Positions 2,180 to 52,775 of a stretch of DNA of 64,000 nucleotides are shown one piece after another. The stretch comes from Minisyncoccota bacterium. Lineage in GTDB: Bacteria > Patescibacteriota > Minisyncoccia > Phycocordibacterales > CAIZLB01. The notes below the pieces were generated by a model. It saw only the letters and a list, made by a program, of their open reading frames with translations. It did not search any database and was not told where the DNA came from. Within the stretch, counting starts at the first letter, position 1; each line of letters opens with the position of its first letter. A program made the position numbers and the translations under genes. The stretch covers positions 156,895-220,894 of the forward strand of contig JAIPIA010000003.1 of the NCBI GenBank assembly GCA_021734945.1, given 5' to 3'.

Positions 2180-2515
2180 CTACTCGTCGTCATCACCCTC
2201 AGGATCCCATGGAGGACTATTGCCACATGGAGTTTTAACCTTCTTTTTGAGCTGCTTTTTAGGCTTCTTCGCTGACCTCTTTTTTGACAGACATTTTGAC
2301 CAAGGAGCGTCGCTTGGTAGATGAAGGCCTTTTCCACTCAAGGCATCCATAATGCCTATACTTTCTTTTTGTACCCACCGTGGATTTTTTGCTCCAGGTG
2401 GTTTTTTACCGCAGGCTCTTATTTTCTGTGGTGGTTTTTTTGCGGTTTTCTTCGCGACTTTTTTGATACTTTTCGCTGGCATGAGTTGACCTCCATCAGT
2501 TCCAACAACTGACAC
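2180..2515 (-). CDS. hypothetical lysine-rich basic protein with acidic C-terminal tail
   Basis: 111-aa ORF rich in K and P, ending PEGDDDE; no family recognised. Confidence 0.35.
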   Translation of the reverse strand: MSVVGTDGGQLMPAKSIKKVAKKTAKKPPQKIRACGKKPPGAKNPRWVQKESIGIMDALSGKGLHLPSDAPWSKCLSKKRSAKKPKKQLKKKVKTPCGNSPPWDPEGDDDE

Positions 2516-2618
2516 ATTGTTTGTGTGATTTGTACTTGCCCCTTAGTTGGAATAAGGTTCTAGGCAAAGTGTATATCACCCATTTAGTAAGTCAATTTAA
2601 AATATTAATAGTAGTCCC

Positions 2619-2696
2619 TTAGTACAAAATAAAATAATGAAAACAGCCTAGCGACAGAGCCCGCGCACAAATGAGGCGTGAGAGTTTCGCTAGGCT
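2619..2696 (-). terminator. intrinsic terminator on minus strand (11-bp GC stem CAGCCUAGCGA/UCGCUAGGCUG followed by a U-rich tract)
   Basis: Perfect inverted repeat at 2643-2653 and 2686-2696; the minus strand then reads UUUUCAUUAUUUUAUUUU. Confidence 0.5.
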
Positions 2697-2880
2697 GGGG
2701 TTTTCGTTGGTTTCGTTGGCTGAGATGGCGAATCTCATGACTGTGAACTTGGGGCTGTTTCTGGTAAAGCCGTACTGCTCCAGACTAGGCGGACCCTGTA
2801 AGGTGCTGCACACAAGAACAGATAAGAAACCAACGCCGACCCTTGAGGGCACTCACTGCATCCGAAGTTCTCAGATTTGA
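2640..2880 (-). ncRNA. GC-rich structured RNA candidate (class unresolved; SRP-, 6S- or tmRNA-like ideas could not be confirmed)
   Basis: A ~55% GC island in ~35% GC DNA with several local hairpins (GAGAU/AUCUC, GGCU/AGCC) and both-strand overlapping short ORFs of GC-artefact composition. It ends in the terminator above. Confidence 0.3.
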
Positions 2881-3043
2881 GCCACTCTCGAACTCTGGAG
2901 AAAAATTCCTTGCTTTTTGCCACCAAGATGACTTCATCAGCATCCTTGGAAGATGTGACTTCTGCAAGTATGTTTTTCCCTGTCTTATCCACAAGAAGGC
3001 TACCCTTCCCTGCAGATGCTAATTTCTCAGCAAGACTTTCCAT
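2735..3043 (-). CDS. hypothetical small protein; only the N-terminal ~57 aa look protein-like, with weak L7Ae-like resemblance. The ORF then reads through the GC-rich element, so its true extent is uncertain
   Basis: The N-terminal sequence MESLAEKLASAGKGSLLVDKTGKNILAEVTSSKDADEVILVAKSKEFFSRVREWLK has ordinary composition. The C-terminal third is Cys/Arg/Pro-rich, typical of translating GC-rich non-coding sequence. Confidence 0.25.
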   Translation of the reverse strand: MESLAEKLASAGKGSLLVDKTGKNILAEVTSSKDADEVILVAKSKEFFSRVREWLKSENFGCSECPQGSALVSYLFLCAAPYRVRLVWSSTALPETAPSSQS

Positions 3044-3284
3044 GATATTTATCCTCTGTCTGACTTCCGGGAATCAGACGGTTTAGTTTTTGTGCAGAAT
3101 GCCAAGCAGTGAAACACCACCAAGCAAGCTTCTCAGGTTCCGGACCAAGAGATTCTGAAGTTAGAATATACTTTGACTAAGATTATTGCAATACCAAAAA
3201 TGACACCCTTTCGAGCGTCATTTTAAGTTCTTTTTCCAAACTATTTTTATACCAACATCGAGATCTACCCAACACGTATTAACT

Positions 3285-4790
3285 CTACTCAACTGAAGCA
3301 ACAAGCATCTCCTTCAACTTATCAATAGTCACTCGCTCCTGTTCACCAGTATCTCGATGTCGTACTGTTACAGTATTCAAAAGTGCAATACCATTTGCAT
3401 CAAGCTTAGCAGCACCACTTTCATCTGTCGCCTCGACTGTATCGAAGTCAATAACTACACAGAACGGCGTACCAATCTCATCTTGTCGTCGATATCGTTT
3501 ACCGATATTTCCATTATCATCAAAGGCAACTCGTCCTGGGAACACTTTTCGTAATGTGTTAAAAATTTCACGCGCTTTTTCAACAAGCTGTGGCTTATTT
3601 TTCAAAAGTGGAGAAACAGCTACGAGGATAGGTGCAATCTTTGGAGAGAACTTCATGTATGCACGTGGTTCACCACCAAGAGTATCTTCTCGATATGCAT
3701 TTGCCATTACAGCGAGAAGAAGTCGTCCGAGGCCGAATGTGGGCTCGATACAATGTGGAATAAAACGCTTTTTTGTAGCGTCCTCTTCTGATTCATCAAA
3801 ATATGAAAGGTCTACTTTTGATGCAGTGGTATGAGCATTGAGGTCAAAGTCTGTTCGATATGCAAGCCCAAGAAGTTCTTTTTGTCCAAATGGAAAATCA
3901 AACTCATGGTCAACACTATGCTTTGAATAATGCGCACGGTCTGATTCTGGAATTTCTACTTGATGAATTTTTGATGCATCAAGTCCGAGAGTATTGATAA
4001 GGAAATCTTTCTGTTCATTTTGAAAATAATCAAAACTCTCTCGCCAATCATTTGGACGAACAAAGTATTCTATCTCCATTTGTTCAAGTTCACGTACACG
4101 GAATATAAAATCACGAGGTGCAATTTCATTTCTAAAAGCCTTTCCAACTTGAGCGAGACCGAAAGGGAGTTTTGGATGAAATGAATCAACAACATTTTTA
4201 AAGTTCACGAACATACCTTGTGCTGTCTCAGGTCGAAGGTAAGAAACAGAAGAATCATCTTGAATAGCACCAACACTTGTCTGAAGCATCATATTGAACT
4301 GTCGAACATCGCCGAGTGGATTTCCTTCTGGGCTTTTGATTCCCTTTTCTTTTATAAGTGCATCCATTTGCTGAAGTGTCAGACCTTTTGGATGAGCTTT
4401 TTCATCACCTGTCTTTTCTACATAATCCTCAAGAAGATGATCTGCTCGATATCGCTTTTTAGTTTTGAGGTCTTCTACCAATGGATCAGCAAAACCCGCA
4501 ACGTGGCCACTCGCCTTCCATACATCCTGATTCATAAGAATAGCAGCATCGATACCATACATATCCTCACGGTCGAGAACAAAACGCTTCCACCAGAGAT
4601 TTTGAATATTGTTTTTCAATGCCACACCTAAAGGTCCATAATCCCATGTACCAGCAAGACCTCCGTAGATTTCAGAGCCTTGATAAATAAAGCCCTTTCG
4701 CTTTGAAAGTGAAATGAGCTTTTCCATAGTACCTTCTGGGTATGCTACTAATTCTTGGTCGGCGTGATTACTCGCGTTTTGTTCATTCAT
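3285..4790 (-). CDS. glyQS: glycine--tRNA ligase, dimeric alpha2 (GlyQS) type
   Basis: 501 aa; N-terminus and class II motifs match alpha2-type GlyRS (FIYQGSEIYGGLAGTWDYGPLG, FRNEIAPRDFIFRVREL). ATG confirmed at 4788-4790. Confidence 0.9.
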   Translation of the reverse strand: MNEQNASNHADQELVAYPEGTMEKLISLSKRKGFIYQGSEIYGGLAGTWDYGPLGVALKNNIQNLWWKRFVLDREDMYGIDAAILMNQDVWKASGHVAGFADPLVEDLKTKKRYRADHLLEDYVEKTGDEKAHPKGLTLQQMDALIKEKGIKSPEGNPLGDVRQFNMMLQTSVGAIQDDSSVSYLRPETAQGMFVNFKNVVDSFHPKLPFGLAQVGKAFRNEIAPRDFIFRVRELEQMEIEYFVRPNDWRESFDYFQNEQKDFLINTLGLDASKIHQVEIPESDRAHYSKHSVDHEFDFPFGQKELLGLAYRTDFDLNAHTTASKVDLSYFDESEEDATKKRFIPHCIEPTFGLGRLLLAVMANAYREDTLGGEPRAYMKFSPKIAPILVAVSPLLKNKPQLVEKAREIFNTLRKVFPGRVAFDDNGNIGKRYRRQDEIGTPFCVVIDFDTVEATDESGAAKLDANGIALLNTVTVRHRDTGEQERVTIDKLKEMLVASVE

Positions 4791-31653: not shown

Positions 31654-32511
31654 TTACTTCAAATAAGATCGTGGTGCGAGATATGATTCCAATTCATTCA
31701 TTGGTACAGAAATCTTAATTTCACCAAACACATATGGTGCAACTTGATATTGGCCAAAAACCCATTCTATTCGATCCTCGTGAACATAAAAAACTCCATA
31801 ATTCTCTAATTTAGGGTCAGCACCTGATGGTTCAAAAATCTTCGAGACATCTGGACTAGTTCCATCTGTAGTCTTAGACATCTTTTTCAGTTGTTCCATA
31901 ATCTTAGGCTTTACTAAGTTTGAGATACCAGTGAGAGATGTTTTAAAATCCTTGTCTGTGGCTACTGCGCTTGTGTCACTAGACCCCTCGCCACTTTCTC
32001 TTTTAAGAATATCTTCTAATCGAATAAGCTGTCCTGTTTCTTTTACAAAATTGTATACAGATCTCTGTGAAAGTGGGTGTGCTGAGCCTGAAATATATGA
32101 ATTAATCTCAGTGTCTACATAAAAGACTTTTTTACTTGCTGACAATGGAGTTCCCCCATTCACCGTAAGCTGATGTTTCATATCTTTTGAGAAAATATCT
32201 ACACCAGCAGTATCTGCTATAAATAATTTCTTTATGTCGCCAAAAGCAGTATCTAACTGTGAATTAACGATATTGTTAATTAAATTGGATGGAAGCCCGG
32301 TAACAACAGGCTGTGTTATGTGAATTGAAGTTGTATCCGTCTCTACATCATCTTTTTTAAAACTGTATCCAACGGTCTCATACCCATTTGTTACTGGTTC
32401 AACATTTGAGATAATTGGGGCCTCTACTTTCCCAGATCGAGTAATTAAAAAAATTATTACGGCGCAGAGGATAACTATTATGAGACCCAGCACTTTTGTT
32501 TTATTTTTCAT
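31654..32511 (-). CDS. membrane-anchored protein, DUF3298/DUF4163 (RsiV-like) candidate
   Basis: N-terminal TM helix with a 260-aa extracytoplasmic domain; no catalytic motif. Confidence 0.35.
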   Translation of the reverse strand: MKNKTKVLGLIIVILCAVIIFLITRSGKVEAPIISNVEPVTNGYETVGYSFKKDDVETDTTSIHITQPVVTGLPSNLINNIVNSQLDTAFGDIKKLFIADTAGVDIFSKDMKHQLTVNGGTPLSASKKVFYVDTEINSYISGSAHPLSQRSVYNFVKETGQLIRLEDILKRESGEGSSDTSAVATDKDFKTSLTGISNLVKPKIMEQLKKMSKTTDGTSPDVSKIFEPSGADPKLENYGVFYVHEDRIEWVFGQYQVAPYVFGEIKISVPMNELESYLAPRSYLK

Positions 32512-32638
32512 ATGATTTATTTTGATTTGGCAGACTATAATTAGTGTTTAACTAAGAACGTAGACGTACCACGCAGACTTATATGACTATTATACTCTTA
32601 TAAAAATTAAATGGAGAACTTGGTCACAGGTTATTCAT

Positions 32639-32732
32639 GTGGTCACAGGTTTCCTCACTGCAGTTCGGAACCCACTACCCCGACTCGCGTGTCTCGTCTA
32701 TTAACTCGACATCGCTCCGTCTCGCCCATGCA
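32639..32732 (-). repeat. GC-rich ~95-nt element, copy B of a duplicated tRNA-adjacent module (GUGCAUGGGCGAGACGGAGC.AUGUCGAGU ... GUGACCAC)
   Basis: The first ~45 nt are near-identical to 50395-50440 on the plus strand, and both copies end in GUGACCAC. It lies just 3' of tRNA-Leu and its terminator. Confidence 0.45.
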
Positions 32733-32766
32733 CAAAAAAAGACCAGAGCAGTCCGGTCTTTTTTGT
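32732..32766 (-). terminator. intrinsic terminator after tRNA-Leu (GACUGCUCUG-containing hairpin between A7 and U6-7)
   Basis: Minus strand reads AAAAAAGACCGGACUGCUCUGGUCUUUUUUUG; its loop motif is shared with the tRNA-Lys terminator. Confidence 0.5.
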
Positions 32767-32770
32767 CATG

Positions 32771-32854
32771 TGCGCGGGAGAGGACTTGAACCTCCATGCC
32801 CTTGCGGGCGCTACCACCTCAAGGTAGTACGTCTACCAGTTTCGCCACCCGCGC
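32771..32854 (-). tRNA. tRNA-Leu (anticodon GAG), long variable arm; CCA not encoded
   Basis: Acceptor GCGCGGG/CCCGCGC, anticodon stem CUACC/GGUAG with loop UUGAGGU, variable arm CGCCCGCAAGGGCAUG, T-arm GAGGUUCAAGUCCUC. It overlaps the spurious plus-strand ORF 32611-32907. Confidence 0.85.
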
Positions 32855-33027
32855 ATTCACTTAGAAACCGAAGTTTCTTAGTGGGGCTATCATACCCAAA
32901 AAACTGATAAGTTTCAACCTTTTAGTCAATTTTAAAAAGTTTTCTATTTTAGATACTGTAGGCAAAAAGAAAACTCCCTTTCGGGAGCTCCTTTTGACAT
33001 ATCATGTCGAGATTTTGTTTAGCTAGA

Positions 33028-41310: not shown

Positions 41311-41398
41311 CGGAGGAGTGGCAGAGTGGTCTATCGCGCTTGTCTTGAAAACAAGAGTCCCTTCACGGGGACCGTGAGTTCGAATCTCACCTCCTCCG
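41311..41398 (+). tRNA. tRNA-Ser (anticodon UGA), long variable arm, discriminator G; CCA not encoded
   Basis: Acceptor GGAGGAG/CUCCUCC, anticodon stem CUUGU/ACAAG with loop CUUGAAA, variable arm AGUCCCUUCACGGGGACC, T-arm GUGAGUUCGAAUCUCAC. Confidence 0.85.
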
Positions 41399-41408
41399 CA
41401 AAAACAAA

Positions 41409-41441: not shown

Positions 41442-41639
41442 AAACAGATGGTAGCGTGGTGAGATTCGAAAGTGATGTTAAAAGCAAACTGCTTTGTCTT
41501 TTTTACGAGCCGACTATGAAGGGAGTGTTTCCAATCTGAGTGAGAATACAGTTTACAGTTCGGGCGAAACAGGAAACACTCACGAAGTGGAATCTCACCT
41601 TATTTAAAATGTTACAAGAAATATTAGCAAAAATATAAA

Positions 41640-45104: not shown

Positions 45105-45351
45105 CACTAAAAATAAAATAACCTGCCATAAGGTATTTTTTTACATTCTATTCGACAAAACAAAAAGGATAGATTGAATCTTTACTTATGTTATTCTTTA
45201 GACATATGACCTATGAAGATTTTGAACAATATCAAAGAGATGAGGAAGAAAGAAGGCGTCGAGAAGGAAAACATCTTGATGATCAGAAAATTGATGCAAC
45301 TATAGATGAGGATAATAAATAAAAATAATATTTTACTCAAATATAAATTCA

Positions 45352-50278: not shown

Positions 50279-50351
50279 GCGCTCGTAGCTCAGTCGGTAG
50301 AGCAGCTCCCTTTTAAGGAGATGGTCGTAGGTTCGATTCCTACCGAGCGCA
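50279..50351 (+). tRNA. tRNA-Lys (anticodon UUU); CCA not encoded
   Basis: GCGCUCGUAGCUCAGUCGGUAGAGCAGCUCCCUUUUAAGGAGAUGGUCGUAGGUUCGAUUCCUACCGAGCGCA. Confidence 0.9.
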
Positions 50352-50361
50352 CAAAGATTCA

Positions 50362-50394
50362 AAAACCCAGACTGCTCTGCTGCAGTCTTTTTTC
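50362..50394 (+). terminator. intrinsic terminator after tRNA-Lys
   Basis: AGACUGC-UCUGCU-GCAGUCU followed by UUUUUU. Confidence 0.6.
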
Positions 50395-50496
50395 GTACAT
50401 GGGCGAGACGGAGCTATGTCGAGTCAGCAGATGAGACAAGCGAGGCGGGGTCGAGGAAATCTGCGAGCGACCGGCGAGTAGATTATCCGTGACCAC
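50395..50496 (+). repeat. GC-rich ~100-nt element, copy A of the duplicated tRNA-adjacent module; followed by a second weak hairpin and U-tract
   Basis: GUACAUGGGCGAGACGGAGCUAUGUCGAGUCAGCAGAUGAGACAAGCGAG ... GUGACCAC; the 5' ~45 nt are near-identical to the minus-strand copy at 32639-32732. Confidence 0.45.
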
Positions 50497-50529: not shown

Positions 50530-51333
50530 ATGAAAACTCTCCTTATCGACAAAGATCGCTACATGATAAAAACTGCGAATCTGGACAAAATCACCGGCAA
50601 ATGGAAAGACGCTGTCGATGCTGCAATTGATGTATATAAAAAAGTATTCGGTGAAAGCTTGGTGTCCGTATATGTTGGAGGAAGTGTTGCCTGCGGTGAA
50701 GCGATAGAAAGTAAGTCTGACATTGACACATATGCTGTTTTAAATATTCCACAAGAGAAAGTTGAAGAGATTGTTAAGACAACGCTCGACGGAGAAAGAT
50801 TAAGGCTTGATAGTGAATTTCCATTTCTCACAAAATTTGAAATGCATGCGTATTCACTTGATATTTTAGGTATTCGAAAACAATTTCAGTTGAGAATTTT
50901 AGCGGTTTGCGTGTACGGTAAAAATTTTGACGCAGATTTCCCAAATTACCCCTTAACAAGAGAAACGTTCCAAAAAGTGCGAATAAGCATGTCCGGCGAT
51001 ATTGAAAAAGCTCGATTGCAACTACAGAAAGCTGATTTGAGTCAGCCTGAATATTCTAAGTATGTTGCAACTGGTGCTCGATGGGTCGCAAAGAGATTGA
51101 TTCGAAACGCAGGAACATTAGCACTTTGGAAGGAAAATTTTTACACAATGAACGTACCAATGATGGCTGAAATATTCGCAGAAGCATATCCAGATAAAAA
51201 GGCAGAGATTGGGGTTCTGCTGAGTTGGGTTGAAAATCCACCAAGTGACGCAAATGTAGTCTTGAATGTTTTAGACACATTTGGTAAATGGCTCATTGAG
51301 GAAGATGAGAGGGTGTTTGGAAAAATGGAGTGA
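50530..51333 (+). CDS. AadA-like ANT(3'')/ANT(9)-family nucleotidyltransferase (aminoglycoside adenylyltransferase-like)
   Basis: NTase motif VSVYVGGSVACGEAIESKSDIDTYAVL and a C-terminal helical (DUF4111-like) domain; 267 aa matches the family size. Confidence 0.55.
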   Translation: MKTLLIDKDRYMIKTANLDKITGKWKDAVDAAIDVYKKVFGESLVSVYVGGSVACGEAIESKSDIDTYAVLNIPQEKVEEIVKTTLDGERLRLDSEFPFLTKFEMHAYSLDILGIRKQFQLRILAVCVYGKNFDADFPNYPLTRETFQKVRISMSGDIEKARLQLQKADLSQPEYSKYVATGARWVAKRLIRNAGTLALWKENFYTMNVPMMAEIFAEAYPDKKAEIGVLLSWVENPPSDANVVLNVLDTFGKWLIEEDERVFGKME

Positions 51334-51464
51334 TATATAAAAATTTGCTCAATTAATTCCCTTAAGGTTTAAGCAGCCTCCTCCCTTTGCAAAGCTCTAA
51401 TAAACAACAACTTATTATAAAGACCATCCATATACTCCCTGTTGGACAGGATAGTTATAATATC

Positions 51465-51545
51465 GTTACGTCTGCCGCACAGTAAAATAAAATGGTCTGC
51501 CATAAGGTATGGCTATTTTATTTACACCCGTTCGATAGGATGAGA
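51465..51545 (+). repeat. partial duplicate of tRNA-Arg 3' end plus ~60 nt of its downstream flank (copy of ~45090-45175)
   Basis: cgtctgccgcacag-taaaataaaatggtctgccataaggtat ... acacccgttcgatagg parallels tRNA-Arg 3' cctgccgagagcacac-taaaaataaaataacctgccataaggtat ... acattctattcgacaaaac ... ggatag. Confidence 0.45.
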
Positions 51546-51646
51546 AAGCCGGACTGAAGCTTCGATGTGAACTAATACGATTTAGTTAGTGAACCAGAAG
51601 CAAAAGAGGAGGGGTCAACAGGACTTTTGTATAACAAAAAGAAAGG

Positions 51647-51671
51647 GTGACCGATTCCTACCAAGCGCACA
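51647..51671 (+). repeat. direct repeat of the tRNA-Lys 3' end (att-like), ~1.3 kb downstream of the tRNA
   Basis: GUGACCGAUUCCUACCAAGCGCACA versus tRNA-Lys 3' GGUUCGAUUCCUACCGAGCGCACA (20 of 21 matches from CGAUUCC); followed by an AGACUGC-containing U-rich tract like the tRNA-Lys terminator. Confidence 0.5.
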
Positions 51672-51746
51672 TGACAAAAAAGACTGCACTACTTCATTCT
51701 TTTTTTTACACATCCACGATATCAATACTTTGCTATACTTGTTTTC

Positions 51747-52775
51747 ATGAATAGACCTGAAAAACATCTATCCTTCGAAACTCCAACAGGAAAAAGTCGC
51801 CAAGAACTCACAAACGACGCAGTTATCTTTCTAGAAAAGACTGGCGCGTTCGAACTTTTTAATGACCCAGTCAGAAAATCTGAATGGATTCAAACAACAA
51901 CAGCAGAAGAAGCTGAACAATATATTGAGAGATTAAATGGGATTTTAATAGGAAACCCGATTTATAAAAGAGAGATATATGAAAATCCAGGTATCCTTGT
52001 TGATCCAGATGATAATTTAGTCGACAAACCTACAAACCCAGAAATATCAAGACACCTTTTCAGAGATCTTATTTTTCCAGCGTGTCAAAGAATACCTATT
52101 AATGATGCCTCTGAACTTATGGCAACGTCGATAAATTTACTTCACATGTTTCCGGACGGTAATGGCAGGACGTCTCGATCGACTTATTCCCTCTTTTTTG
52201 AACCTACTCGTGCAAAAATTAAACCACAAGAAAGGAAAGAATTTTTAGAGTGGCAGACAGGAGAACAAAAAGGTGTATTAAATTGGAATCCTCGTTTAAT
52301 TAGATCTAATATTAATTCAATTATTAGAAATAGAATTGATTCAACCAAACCAAGCTTTTTAGAAGCACAAGAATCTTCTGCATTTCCTGAAGAGATATTG
52401 AATTACAAAGGAGAAAACCTTGCTATACAATCTTTAAGAGAAACTTGTCTTTCGAGAGACCCTGATGTCGCTATGGCACTTATTATGCACGCAGGTCGAA
52501 ATGAACTTAACCCAGACGAATTCATTGTAAAAGGAAACAAACTTCTCAATAACCAAAAGATTCTTGAGAGTGTGGATGAATCAACTGCAGTAAGTGTTCT
52601 GGAGTGTCTCGAAACAATTAAGATGCTAAGGGTGGTCACACTTGTTGATGTTTTTGAACACCCAAATGAATATAAAAGCCCGATTGATACCTATAACCTA
52701 AAAGAATATTTTGAATTACTTGTAAAAACAAAAGCTCTTCAAGAACAAAATCCTGATTTAGATATTTCATCCTAA
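51747..52775 (+). CDS. Fic/Doc-family protein (putative AMPylase/toxin-like)
   Basis: Canonical Fic motif HMFPDGNGRTSR (HxFx[DE]GNGRxxR); no (S/T)xxxE(G/N) inhibitory motif found by eye. Confidence 0.7.
   Translation: MNRPEKHLSFETPTGKSRQELTNDAVIFLEKTGAFELFNDPVRKSEWIQTTTAEEAEQYIERLNGILIGNPIYKREIYENPGILVDPDDNLVDKPTNPEISRHLFRDLIFPACQRIPINDASELMATSINLLHMFPDGNGRTSRSTYSLFFEPTRAKIKPQERKEFLEWQTGEQKGVLNWNPRLIRSNINSIIRNRIDSTKPSFLEAQESSAFPEEILNYKGENLAIQSLRETCLSRDPDVAMALIMHAGRNELNPDEFIVKGNKLLNNQKILESVDESTAVSVLECLETIKMLRVVTLVDVFEHPNEYKSPIDTYNLKEYFELLVKTKALQEQNPDLDISS

Follow-up and report, generated by a model that had tools for sequence, protein, structure and literature searches.

Structured modules behind CCA-less tRNA genes: a candidate RNA family in the tRNA trailers of candidate phyla radiation bacteria

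The DNA considered here (the window) comprises 64,000 nt from a Minisyncoccota bacterium (GCA_021734945.1, contig JAIPIA010000003.1, forward-strand positions 156,895-220,894) and carries ordinary cellular genes, e.g. those for L19, pseudouridine synthase, SpoU and Fpg. It belongs to a Candidatus Pacebacteria metagenome-assembled genome: its nucleotidyltransferase, DoxX and RsiV/DUF3298 proteins have counterparts of 100% identity in one. Our subject is a GC-rich module of about 100 nt, termed T1, which occurs in it twice: copy A lies on the minus strand behind tRNA-Leu(GAG) and copy B on the plus strand behind tRNA-Lys(UUU), just where a preliminary description of the sequence had put them.

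Two tRNA-linked modules in the window

The features at the two loci are as follows.

32917..32889, minus: promoter-like TTGAAA-17-TATGAT for tRNA-Leu(GAG)
32770..32854, minus: tRNA-Leu(GAG) (ARAGORN; Rfam tRNA, 48.4 bits), CCA not encoded, gene ending ...GCGCA followed by C
32734..32769, minus: trailer hairpin A, AUGACAAAAAAGACCGG-ACUGCU-CUGGUCUUUUUUU, terminator-like, starting 1 nt past tRNA-Leu
32733..32639, minus: T1 module copy A, GUGCAUGGGCGAG...CUGUGACCAC (covariance model CM R1, 104.6 bits; RNAalifold and pair counts)
32733-32728, minus: GUGCAU of copy A, part of the trailer hairpin
32727-32722, minus: single-stranded GGGCGA of copy A
32721..32682, minus: helices P0 and P1 of copy A, with GGA/GA internal loop and tandem G-A, followed by GG
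32679..32641, minus: P2 hairpin of copy A, followed by AC
32589..32594, minus: TATAAT, the -10 box of the DUF3298 gene's own promoter (GAGTATAAT), downstream of copy A
50279..50352, plus: tRNA-Lys(UUU) (ARAGORN; Rfam tRNA, 74 bits), CCA not encoded, ending ...GCGCA followed by C
50353..50394, plus: trailer and hairpin B, AGACUGC-UCUGCU-GCAGUCU, then U6 (from the fold; terminator-like on both strands)
50395-50496, plus: T1 module copy B, GUACAUGGGCGAG...CCGUGACCAC (CM R1, 106.8 bits), with the architecture of copy A

Both copies finish with GUGACCAC, as had been described, and 49 of their first 57 nt are identical (86%, the earlier estimate being ~85% over ~45 nt). Their GC contents of 0.58 and 0.59, against 0.365 for the window, agree with the ~60% and ~35% given before, and the modules are purine-rich (G 0.37-0.38, C 0.20-0.22). 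Between the copies P1a has undergone a compensatory change (GCU/AGC in copy B, GCG/CGC in copy A). There are two occurrences of the 17-mer CATGGGCGAGACGGAGC in the window, and no more when 3 mismatches are allowed (0.03 in shuffles), and GACTGCTCTG, the loop motif said to be common to the preceding hairpins, indeed has its only exact matches in the two trailer hairpins; the 10-mer with one mismatch is not significant alone. The next window match to the covariance model reaches 12.6 bits, against the scores listed for the two copies, which are expected to be high because the model was built partly from them.

The similarity between the two loci begins ahead of the module, at the first base after each tRNA and so within the trailer hairpin. 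Hairpin A is an 18-bp fold of -17.1 kcal/mol followed by U7, the 3' strand of which extends into the first bases (GUGCAU) of copy A; its loop ACUGCU is conserved and its stem covaries across genomes. That each copy follows a tRNA and its terminator holds as far as the hairpins and their U tracts are concerned (U7 for A, U6 for B), but a simple terminator scan calls the hairpin of copy B only, on both strands, and leaves that of copy A uncalled. As to the genes further downstream, copy A is found 127 nt upstream of a gene for a DUF3298/RsiV-like membrane protein (31654-32511, minus) and copy B 33 nt upstream of a nucleotidyltransferase (NTase) gene (50530-51333, plus); these two neighbours had been recognised in the preliminary description, but assigned to the wrong copies. 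Both T1 copies are co-oriented with their flanking genes.

Conservation and a covarying fold among relatives

Relatives were first collected by an exact-pattern scan of GTDB species genomes, which yielded four loci with five copies from the candidate phyla radiation (CPR). CM R1, built from five copies including both window copies, was run on loci fetched via homologues of the flanking DoxX and DUF3298 proteins (compared loci from related CPR genomes and metagenomic contigs are given L-numbers here). By exact pattern and covariance model there are ~14 further copies, spread over ~10 related CPR genomes and almost without exception placed directly behind a tRNA; a lack of further copies had been named beforehand as grounds for refutation. 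A metagenome scan with a relaxed pattern gave 73 chance matches in high-GC DNA and one true match (L058, a duplicate of L011).

T1 follows tRNA-Lys in the window, L011/L058, L013, L014, L142, L147, L152 and L158 and tRNA-Leu in the window, L012 and L170, while a type T3 follows tRNA-Arg(GCG) in L011, L147 and L158. T2, with weak covariance model scores, is found after tRNA-Lys in L014 and L152 and, decayed, in the window; T4 follows tRNA-Arg(GCG) in L142 (1205-1307, z = -6.65) and tRNA-Ser in the window and was recognised by architecture, as was a module after tRNA-Lys in L156, a distant genome with a DoxX that is 40% identical. All copies found lie on the tRNA-sense strand, and 15 of 17 are directly 3' of a tRNA on the same strand and without a promoter of their own, the two exceptions (L014b and the T1 of L152) following another terminator or a decayed tRNA remnant. 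Genomes carry two to four copies beside specific tRNAs, and the 64 kb of the window hold two T1, one T2 remnant and one T4. The window genome and the relatives used below for protein comparison share the site at tRNA-Lys, the order being RuvA, Fpg, SpoU, DoxX, tRNA-Lys, module, variable genes, holA, polA.

The tRNAs in question are those that lack an encoded CCA. Window tRNAs that encode it (His, Val, Arg-UCU) have plain terminators and no module (0 of 3); among the four that do not, three carry a module (Leu, Lys, Ser) and the fourth, Arg-GCG, has one in other genomes. In these Leu, Lys, Arg(GCG) and Ser genes the discriminator is always followed by C-A. Between the window genome and L012, L014 and L058 orthologous proteins are 55-60% identical (L19: 79%), and despite that divergence the 5' domain of the module is 90-100% identical.

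The common order is tRNA (discriminator plus C), a long trailer hairpin with (A)CUGC(U) loop, GGGCGA, P0/P1, GG, P2 and AC. In the T1 trailer hairpin an A tract pairs with the U tract, which resembles a bidirectional terminator; the T3 trailer has no U tract. P0 (GAC/GUC) and P1 (GCU-A-UGUC-GA-GUC, loop, GAC-GA-GACA-AGC) are separated by the internal loop GGA/GA, and P2 runs from GGUCG.GG through a variable stem, often with another CGAG/CGAG tandem G-A, to CC.GUGACC. Three such tandem G-A motifs are present; L013, L014 and L147 have an extra hairpin unit. P2 ends as helix-A-C, like the CCA-less tRNAs of the genome. No closing helix is consistent between T1 copies, and no pseudoknot partner for the conserved UGGGC was found by eye.

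RNAalifold on five copies shows compensatory changes in 12 of 29 pairs. In 16 copies aligned to the covariance model, a fitting that somewhat inflates these figures, 93.9% of cells pair and 22 of 29 pairs change on both sides (reached by 0 of 500 shuffles), and sliding the partners by 1-3 columns lowers pairing to 29-48%. P1 occurs as UGUC-GA-GUC/GAC-GA-GACA, UGUUUUGUC/GACAAAACA, UGUUUUAUC/GAUAAAACA and UGUCGC/GCGACA, and P0 as GAC/GUC, GUC/GAC and GCC/GGC. With covariation as strong as this, the idea of a one-off local duplication, against which a covariation check had been proposed, is not borne out. G-U or U-G cells number 31 against 6 for A-C or C-A, copy B folds better in sense (z = -2.4) than in antisense (+0.8), and other module folds have sense-strand z-scores of -3 to -6.6; the wobble excess and the better sense folds therefore identify the tRNA-sense strand as the one that folds. 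The outermost pairs of the trailer hairpin covary too (AUG/CAU with ACG/CGU), including the first bases of the module, and such pairing across the module start matters only in a read-through RNA.

No catalogued family accounts for the module, as the preliminary description had suspected. Against Rfam 15 (4227 models) only tRNAs pass the gathering threshold in the window; at E up to 10 nothing overlaps either module there, group II intron and transfer-messenger RNA (tmRNA) models included, and the modules of L012, L014 and L152 are free of matches at E up to 1. ARAGORN reports no tmRNA in the window or the compared loci. The literature searched, whose coverage is incomplete and which is weak evidence of novelty, holds no description of such an element.

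Two other products of the locus were considered. Starting from an internal ATG, a small open reading frame would give 24 aa in copy A and 11 aa in copy B, and there is no ATG in L012, L142 or T3; neither frame nor start is conserved, and this candidate was rejected. An antisense RNA or rut site is improbable, since, although the antisense strand is rich in C, it is the sense strand that has the folds, the G-U pairs and the covariation.

Sister types and turnover at the tRNA-Lys locus

Besides the T1 copies the window contains the following related units.

41458..41599, plus: T4 module, after tRNA-Ser(UGA) (41312-41399) and a terminator (sequence, fold)
51450..51480, plus: probable decayed tRNA-Lys 3'-half remnant (...GTCTGCCGCAC), containing TATAAT and aligning to the tRNA-Lys 3' half of L014
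51481..51652, plus: degenerate T2 unit, trailer hairpin 51481-51524 and module ACACCCGUUCGAUAGG-AUGAGAAAGCCGGA...GGGUGACC, homologous to L014 36-199 and L152 3491-3646
51653..51670, plus: 18-nt tRNA-Lys 3'-end copy (GATTCCTACCAAGCGCAC, 17/18), spanning T-loop position 57 through the base next to the discriminator on its 3' side and forming the 3' strand of the T2 closing helix
51671..51708, plus: decayed T1-type trailer (ATGACAAAAAAGACTGCACTACTTCATTCTTTTTTTT) with no module behind it

A helix closes T2 and T4, and for its 3' strand it uses 10-18 nt copied from the T-loop-to-3'-end segment of the cognate tRNA, beginning at T-loop position 57. The copy is 17-18 nt long for Lys (window 51653-51670, L014 200-217, L152 3647-3664, L156 3171-3187) and for Arg (L142 ~1290-1307) and 10-11 nt for Ser (window 41590-41599), where just the helix-pairing part is kept, without the acceptor part. 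The 5' strand of the helix consists of the T-stem 5' strand, then the exact complement of four T-loop bases (AAUC/GAUU, AUUC/GAAU, AUUU/AAAU), then GAAAG. The copies carry lineage-specific bases of their tRNAs (AAATCC... in L156, ...CCTGTC... in L142); the 17/18 match in the window is expected 0 times by chance and has the same junction, GACC followed directly by GATTCC, in L014 and L152. The window T2 is itself a weak match to the covariance model (9.3 bits) with a fold z of only -1.4, and the intact counterpart of the order seen at 51450-51708 is found in L014 (1-260) and L152 (3417-3664). The window T4 has a perfect 10-bp closing helix, GGUGAGAUUC/GAAUCUCACC, which copies the T-loop 3' half and T-stem 3' strand of tRNA-Ser, carries GAAAG after its 5' arm as do other closed types and is built like L142 1205-1307. 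Its inner hairpin, AAAGCAAACUGCUUU, has the CUGC loop motif of the trailer hairpins of other types.

The flanks of T1 resemble those of T2 minus the closure, with UCGUAC at the 5' side (compare UCGUAGG) and CAC followed by a trailer-like start at the 3' side; in T1 this CAC plus trailer start gives a repeat of only 7-16 nt, 16 nt being reached in L012. Closure through a T-arm copy suggests that the family arose from a partial tRNA duplication with an expanded T loop, and the closed sister types may mimic part of a tRNA.

No module stands behind tRNA-Arg(GCG) in the window, but its trailer at 45106-45165 (plus; ACTAAAAATAAAATAACCTGCCATAAGGTATTTTTTT ACATTCTATTCGA...) is similar to the trailer hairpin of T2 and to the opening bases of the 5' flank of T2, and in L155 a near-exact T2 trailer follows tRNA-Arg(GCG). 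The genes for tRNA-Lys, tRNA-Arg(GCG) and tRNA-Arg(UCU) have 16-17 of their last 18 bases in common.

Gene order at the tRNA-Lys locus is in flux. In the window T1 is followed by the NTase gene, the decayed tRNA remnant, T2, the tRNA copy, the dead T1 trailer and a Fic-like gene; in L014 one finds T2, T1, three genes, a second T1 and further genes, and in L147 and L013 almost nothing lies between module and holA. Between tRNA-Lys and holA the content varies among NTase, Fic-like, ResIII helicase, AbiEii and INT_rpt proteins. L014 encodes (2344-3372, plus) a protein of 342 aa that contains four repeats of the Pfam INT_rpt type ('integrase repeat unit') but lacks a catalytic domain; its gene comes after that of the ResIII helicase and ends just before the second T1 (3420-3576). 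Among 26 flanking or island proteins scanned against Pfam and NCBIfam we found no integrase, transposase, HUH enzyme or recombinase.

The island carries toxin-antitoxin-like or defence-like genes, in the window those for a 267-aa NTase (50530-51333) and a weakly Fic/Doc-like protein (51747-52775), and AbiEii nucleotidyltransferases occupy the same segment in relatives (L147 7492-8196, L152 6729-7463). Some NTase toxins of this kind modify tRNA 3' ends, and a relation between them and modules that resemble tRNA ends could be worth considering. Many short metagenomic contigs (L146, L148-L151, L153, L154, L164, L166-L169) end in tRNA-Lys or tRNA-Leu or just before the module; breaks of this sort would be expected where the sequence further downstream has repeats in the genome or varies among strains living together.

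A motif of TATAAT and, 6-8 nt on, A(C/A)GTCTGC recurs upstream of genes or units, namely at 51455-51478 (plus), where it overlaps the possible tRNA remnant, at 32594-32570 (minus) and at ~31600-31570 (minus); it may represent a promoter with a conserved transcript start. To the left of ~41.2 kb in the window nearly every long open reading frame is on the minus strand, and between 42.2 and 52.8 kb the plus strand carries most of them; the GC skew changes character near 47 kb. The strand switch at ~41.3-42.2 kb could mark a replication origin or be no more than the border of an operon.

RNA of the tRNA trailer or recombining cassette

To our minds the modules represent an uncatalogued, structured RNA family which resides in the 3' trailers of CCA-less tRNA genes of Paceibacteria-like CPR bacteria and is read through from the tRNA, and we would put the probability of this at about 0.5. 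We favour such an RNA because the modules are conserved at the level of a tRNA, keep their unpaired joiners, have compensatory stems with G-U pairs on the sense strand and hold a fixed sense position after CCA-less tRNAs, and because tRNA-Arg trailers of the T3 type have no U tract, so that the module there would have to be co-transcribed. Conservation, the covarying structure, the strand that folds, position and orientation and the absence from catalogues are observed, whereas transcription, processing and any protein partner of the modules are what we infer.

In such a scheme, transcription would begin at the tRNA promoter and read through the long trailer hairpin or, in the tRNA-Arg type, simply run on past it. 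tRNA 3' processing would cut after the discriminator, probably through RNase Z, which handles CCA-less tRNA precursors in other bacteria, and RNase III might cleave the 20-bp trailer hairpin. An RNA of ~100-140 nt could thereby be freed, comprising the trailer hairpin, the purine-rich joiner GGGCGA, the P0/P1 arm with its GGA/GA loop and one or two P2 hairpins. In the modelled fold, the three tandem G-A motifs and the variable number of P2 hairpins suggest a protein-binding scaffold or decoy.

How does this compare with RNAs already known? The E. coli 3'ETS-leuZ, reportedly described by Lalaouna et al. in 2015 as a small RNA cut from a tRNA precursor, is similar in that it is encoded directly 3' of a tRNA, in sense and without a promoter of its own, and in that the module, too, would be released by tRNA 3' processing. 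However, 3'ETS-leuZ is a short, weakly structured base-pairing sponge, whereas the module is a three-domain fold of 100-140 nt with conserved joiners, has paralogues at several tRNAs and is separated from its tRNA by a terminator-like hairpin. The T-stem-like closing helix of T2 and T4, made from tRNA T loop and T stem (in T2 also from the acceptor 3' strand), recalls the tRNA-like domains of tmRNA and of the Y RNA YrlA; in contrast to these, there is neither an acceptor stem nor a tag reading frame, the insert lies within the T loop and T1, the commonest type, has lost the tRNA-derived closure. Neither ARAGORN nor Rfam identifies the element. Kink-turns bound by L7Ae, as in box C/D RNAs, come to mind on account of the three C-GA-G/C-GA-G tandem G-A motifs and of a P0/P1 junction with kink-turn strand polarity, but the P0/P1 bulge measures 1 nt rather than 3 (GAC-G-GA-GCU / AGC-GA-GUC). 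To our knowledge no L7Ae-family partner is known in these bacteria, and none was looked for here.

Several observations weigh against an RNA gene. T1 is dispensable at single loci: L172 does without it, though it shares 93% identity with L170 downstream, and in L165 only a remnant of 31 nt is left. P2 variants are shuffled across genomes as well as among the Lys, Leu and Arg loci, the unit of L012 is flanked by a 16-nt direct repeat (CACACGACAAAAAAGA), and tRNA 3'-end copies and decayed tRNA remnants flank the units at the tRNA-Lys locus. A hairpin with U6-7 precedes the T1 module and leaves no room for a separate promoter, so any RNA output would depend on read-through, and no consistent terminator follows the module. 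Turnover, repeats and tRNA copies also fit a mobile or recombining DNA cassette, and a hairpin in single-stranded DNA would give the same strand bias.

The unit may accordingly be seen as a miniature, non-autonomous recombination cassette that inserts at tRNA 3' ends or T loops, its folded module (as single-stranded DNA or RNA) being recognised by a recombinase supplied in trans and successive insertions building arrays and bringing in cargo genes. The preliminary description had offered a small RNA family and a recombination signal side by side; we lean to the former and rate the latter, its main rival, as less likely. It draws on the indel between 93%-identical genomes, the L012 repeat and the shuffled P2 variants just mentioned and also on cognate tRNA copies of 17-18 nt that start from T-loop position 57, sit exactly at module ends and bear lineage-specific bases, on decayed tRNA 3' halves ahead of further units, on the 3-kb gene block that two T1 copies bracket in L014, on the variable genes before holA and on the many short contigs that break inside tRNA-Lys.

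Against this, no gene for an integrase, a transposase or an HUH enzyme was seen in the islands examined; what lies between the tRNA copies measures just 160-190 nt and is gene-less; copy number is low, with two T1, one T2 remnant and one T4 in 64 kb; and the L170/L172 indel has its boundary elsewhere than at the module's 3' end. Mobile DNA that was scanned gave no match either: the 17-mer has only 3 chance matches in viral contigs, inside GC-rich coding DNA, the T2 core pattern and a degenerate P1/P2 pattern yielded 53 viral loci with zero covariance model matches, and phages and plasmids gave no blastn match. Occupancy of one and the same site persists at ~57% protein identity and single-stranded joiners are highly conserved, which is more typical of an RNA gene. 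The T4 at tRNA-Ser keeps only the 10-11 nt that pair in the helix; selection there acts on the helix, not on tRNA identity.

Known mobile systems resemble the units in part. Tandem arrays formed as in cis-mobilisable element (CIME)-like accretion, and the attL/attR ends of tRNA islands, for which Williams is said to have described T-loop crossover sites in 2002, share the direct repeat from T loop to 3' end, the arrays by one tRNA and the variable toxin-antitoxin- or defence-like genes downstream. Here, however, a far-end direct repeat of the tRNA is seen with T2 and T4 only, no integrase gene is among the 26 proteins, the 160-190 nt between repeats fold into a conserved structure, and the repeat pairs with a complementary strand ~120 nt upstream in place of a conventional core site. 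Integron attC sites and the CTX-phage attP(+) have a strand-specific fold with a conserved base, a variable distal stem and length and a position at cassette boundaries in common with the module; unlike attC, it has no R'/R'' boxes and no IntI or Xer context (it ends GUGACCAC with GTTRRRY at neither end, and no integrase was found in the islands examined), and its conserved single-stranded joiners and tandem G-A are not attC features. As for REP, PATE or MITE repeats, there are two strong copies in 64 kb, and the inverted repeats of T2 and T4 are copied from the local tRNA, not intrinsic.

The RNA and the cassette are not mutually exclusive, as a tRNA-adjacent RNA gene could be a recombination target or an RNA could ride on a cassette. 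A bolder version, which we regard as improbable, would make T2 and T4 the active form of a CPR cassette that targets tRNA genes, gene-less and ~170 nt long, with a folded scaffold and a 17-18 nt tRNA copy directing T-loop insertion by an enzyme encoded elsewhere, in a structure-recognised or guide-like manner, and T1 its domesticated derivative. If true, this would amount to an integron-like or guide-like system that builds tRNA-gene islands without a linked integrase.

Very unlikely, and contradicted by the data, is the notion that the modules are functionless, i.e. debris left by repeated tRNA-gene duplication or island integration, palindromic GC-rich selfish DNA comparable to yeast mitochondrial GC clusters or REP elements, or a piece of some known RNA. 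Remnants of tRNAs do occur close by, decay is visible in some copies (T2 in the window, the remnant in L165, a T1 of L147 without P2), and 5' GUGCA and 3' AC faintly recall group II intron ends; but 90-100% identity with compensatory pairs across genomes at ~57% protein identity is unexpected of debris, and copy number is far below that of REP-like repeats. For a known fragment, Intron_gpII, tmRNA and all other Rfam models give no match at E up to 10, ARAGORN no tmRNA, and ~100 nt is far too small for an intron: where a group II intron has domains V/VI, a 5' GUGYG and an encoded protein or at least 400 nt, the module begins with GUGCA or GUACA, or lacks such a start (T3), and has 95-105 nt and no open reading frame.

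Least credible of all, and likewise contradicted, is a cis-regulatory leader (riboswitch or attenuator) of the downstream gene, NTase for copy B and membrane protein for copy A, a tie which the preliminary description had implied: although just 33 nt separate the end of copy B from the start codon of the NTase gene and the same pairing occurs in L013, NTase homologues of 52-82% identity elsewhere have upstream gaps of 25-153 nt and no module, the genes downstream differ by locus and are convergent in L058, L142, L147 and L014a, so that no constant 5' untranslated region of a coherent, co-oriented gene is seen, Rfam offers no riboswitch family, and the DUF3298 gene has its own promoter beyond the module (GAGTATAAT, kept at the same place in the window, L012, L165, L170 and L172, with or without T1), and therefore does not need the module as its leader.

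RNAs derived from trailers and from tRNAs have been known before; what appears to be new is a conserved multi-domain fold which trails tRNAs, is confined to a CPR clade and has sister forms that a T-arm copy closes. For CPR bacteria (Patescibacteria), whose genomes are tiny, hardly any non-coding RNA other than the housekeeping ones has been described, and here is an element as conserved as a tRNA while proteins have drifted to ~57% identity. It marks a recombination hot spot with turnover of toxin-antitoxin-like and defence-like genes. The covariance model makes the family searchable, and it can be tested directly in metatranscriptomes. The module is thus a strong candidate for an RNA specific to this lineage that would act in tRNA biology, protein sequestration or genome plasticity.

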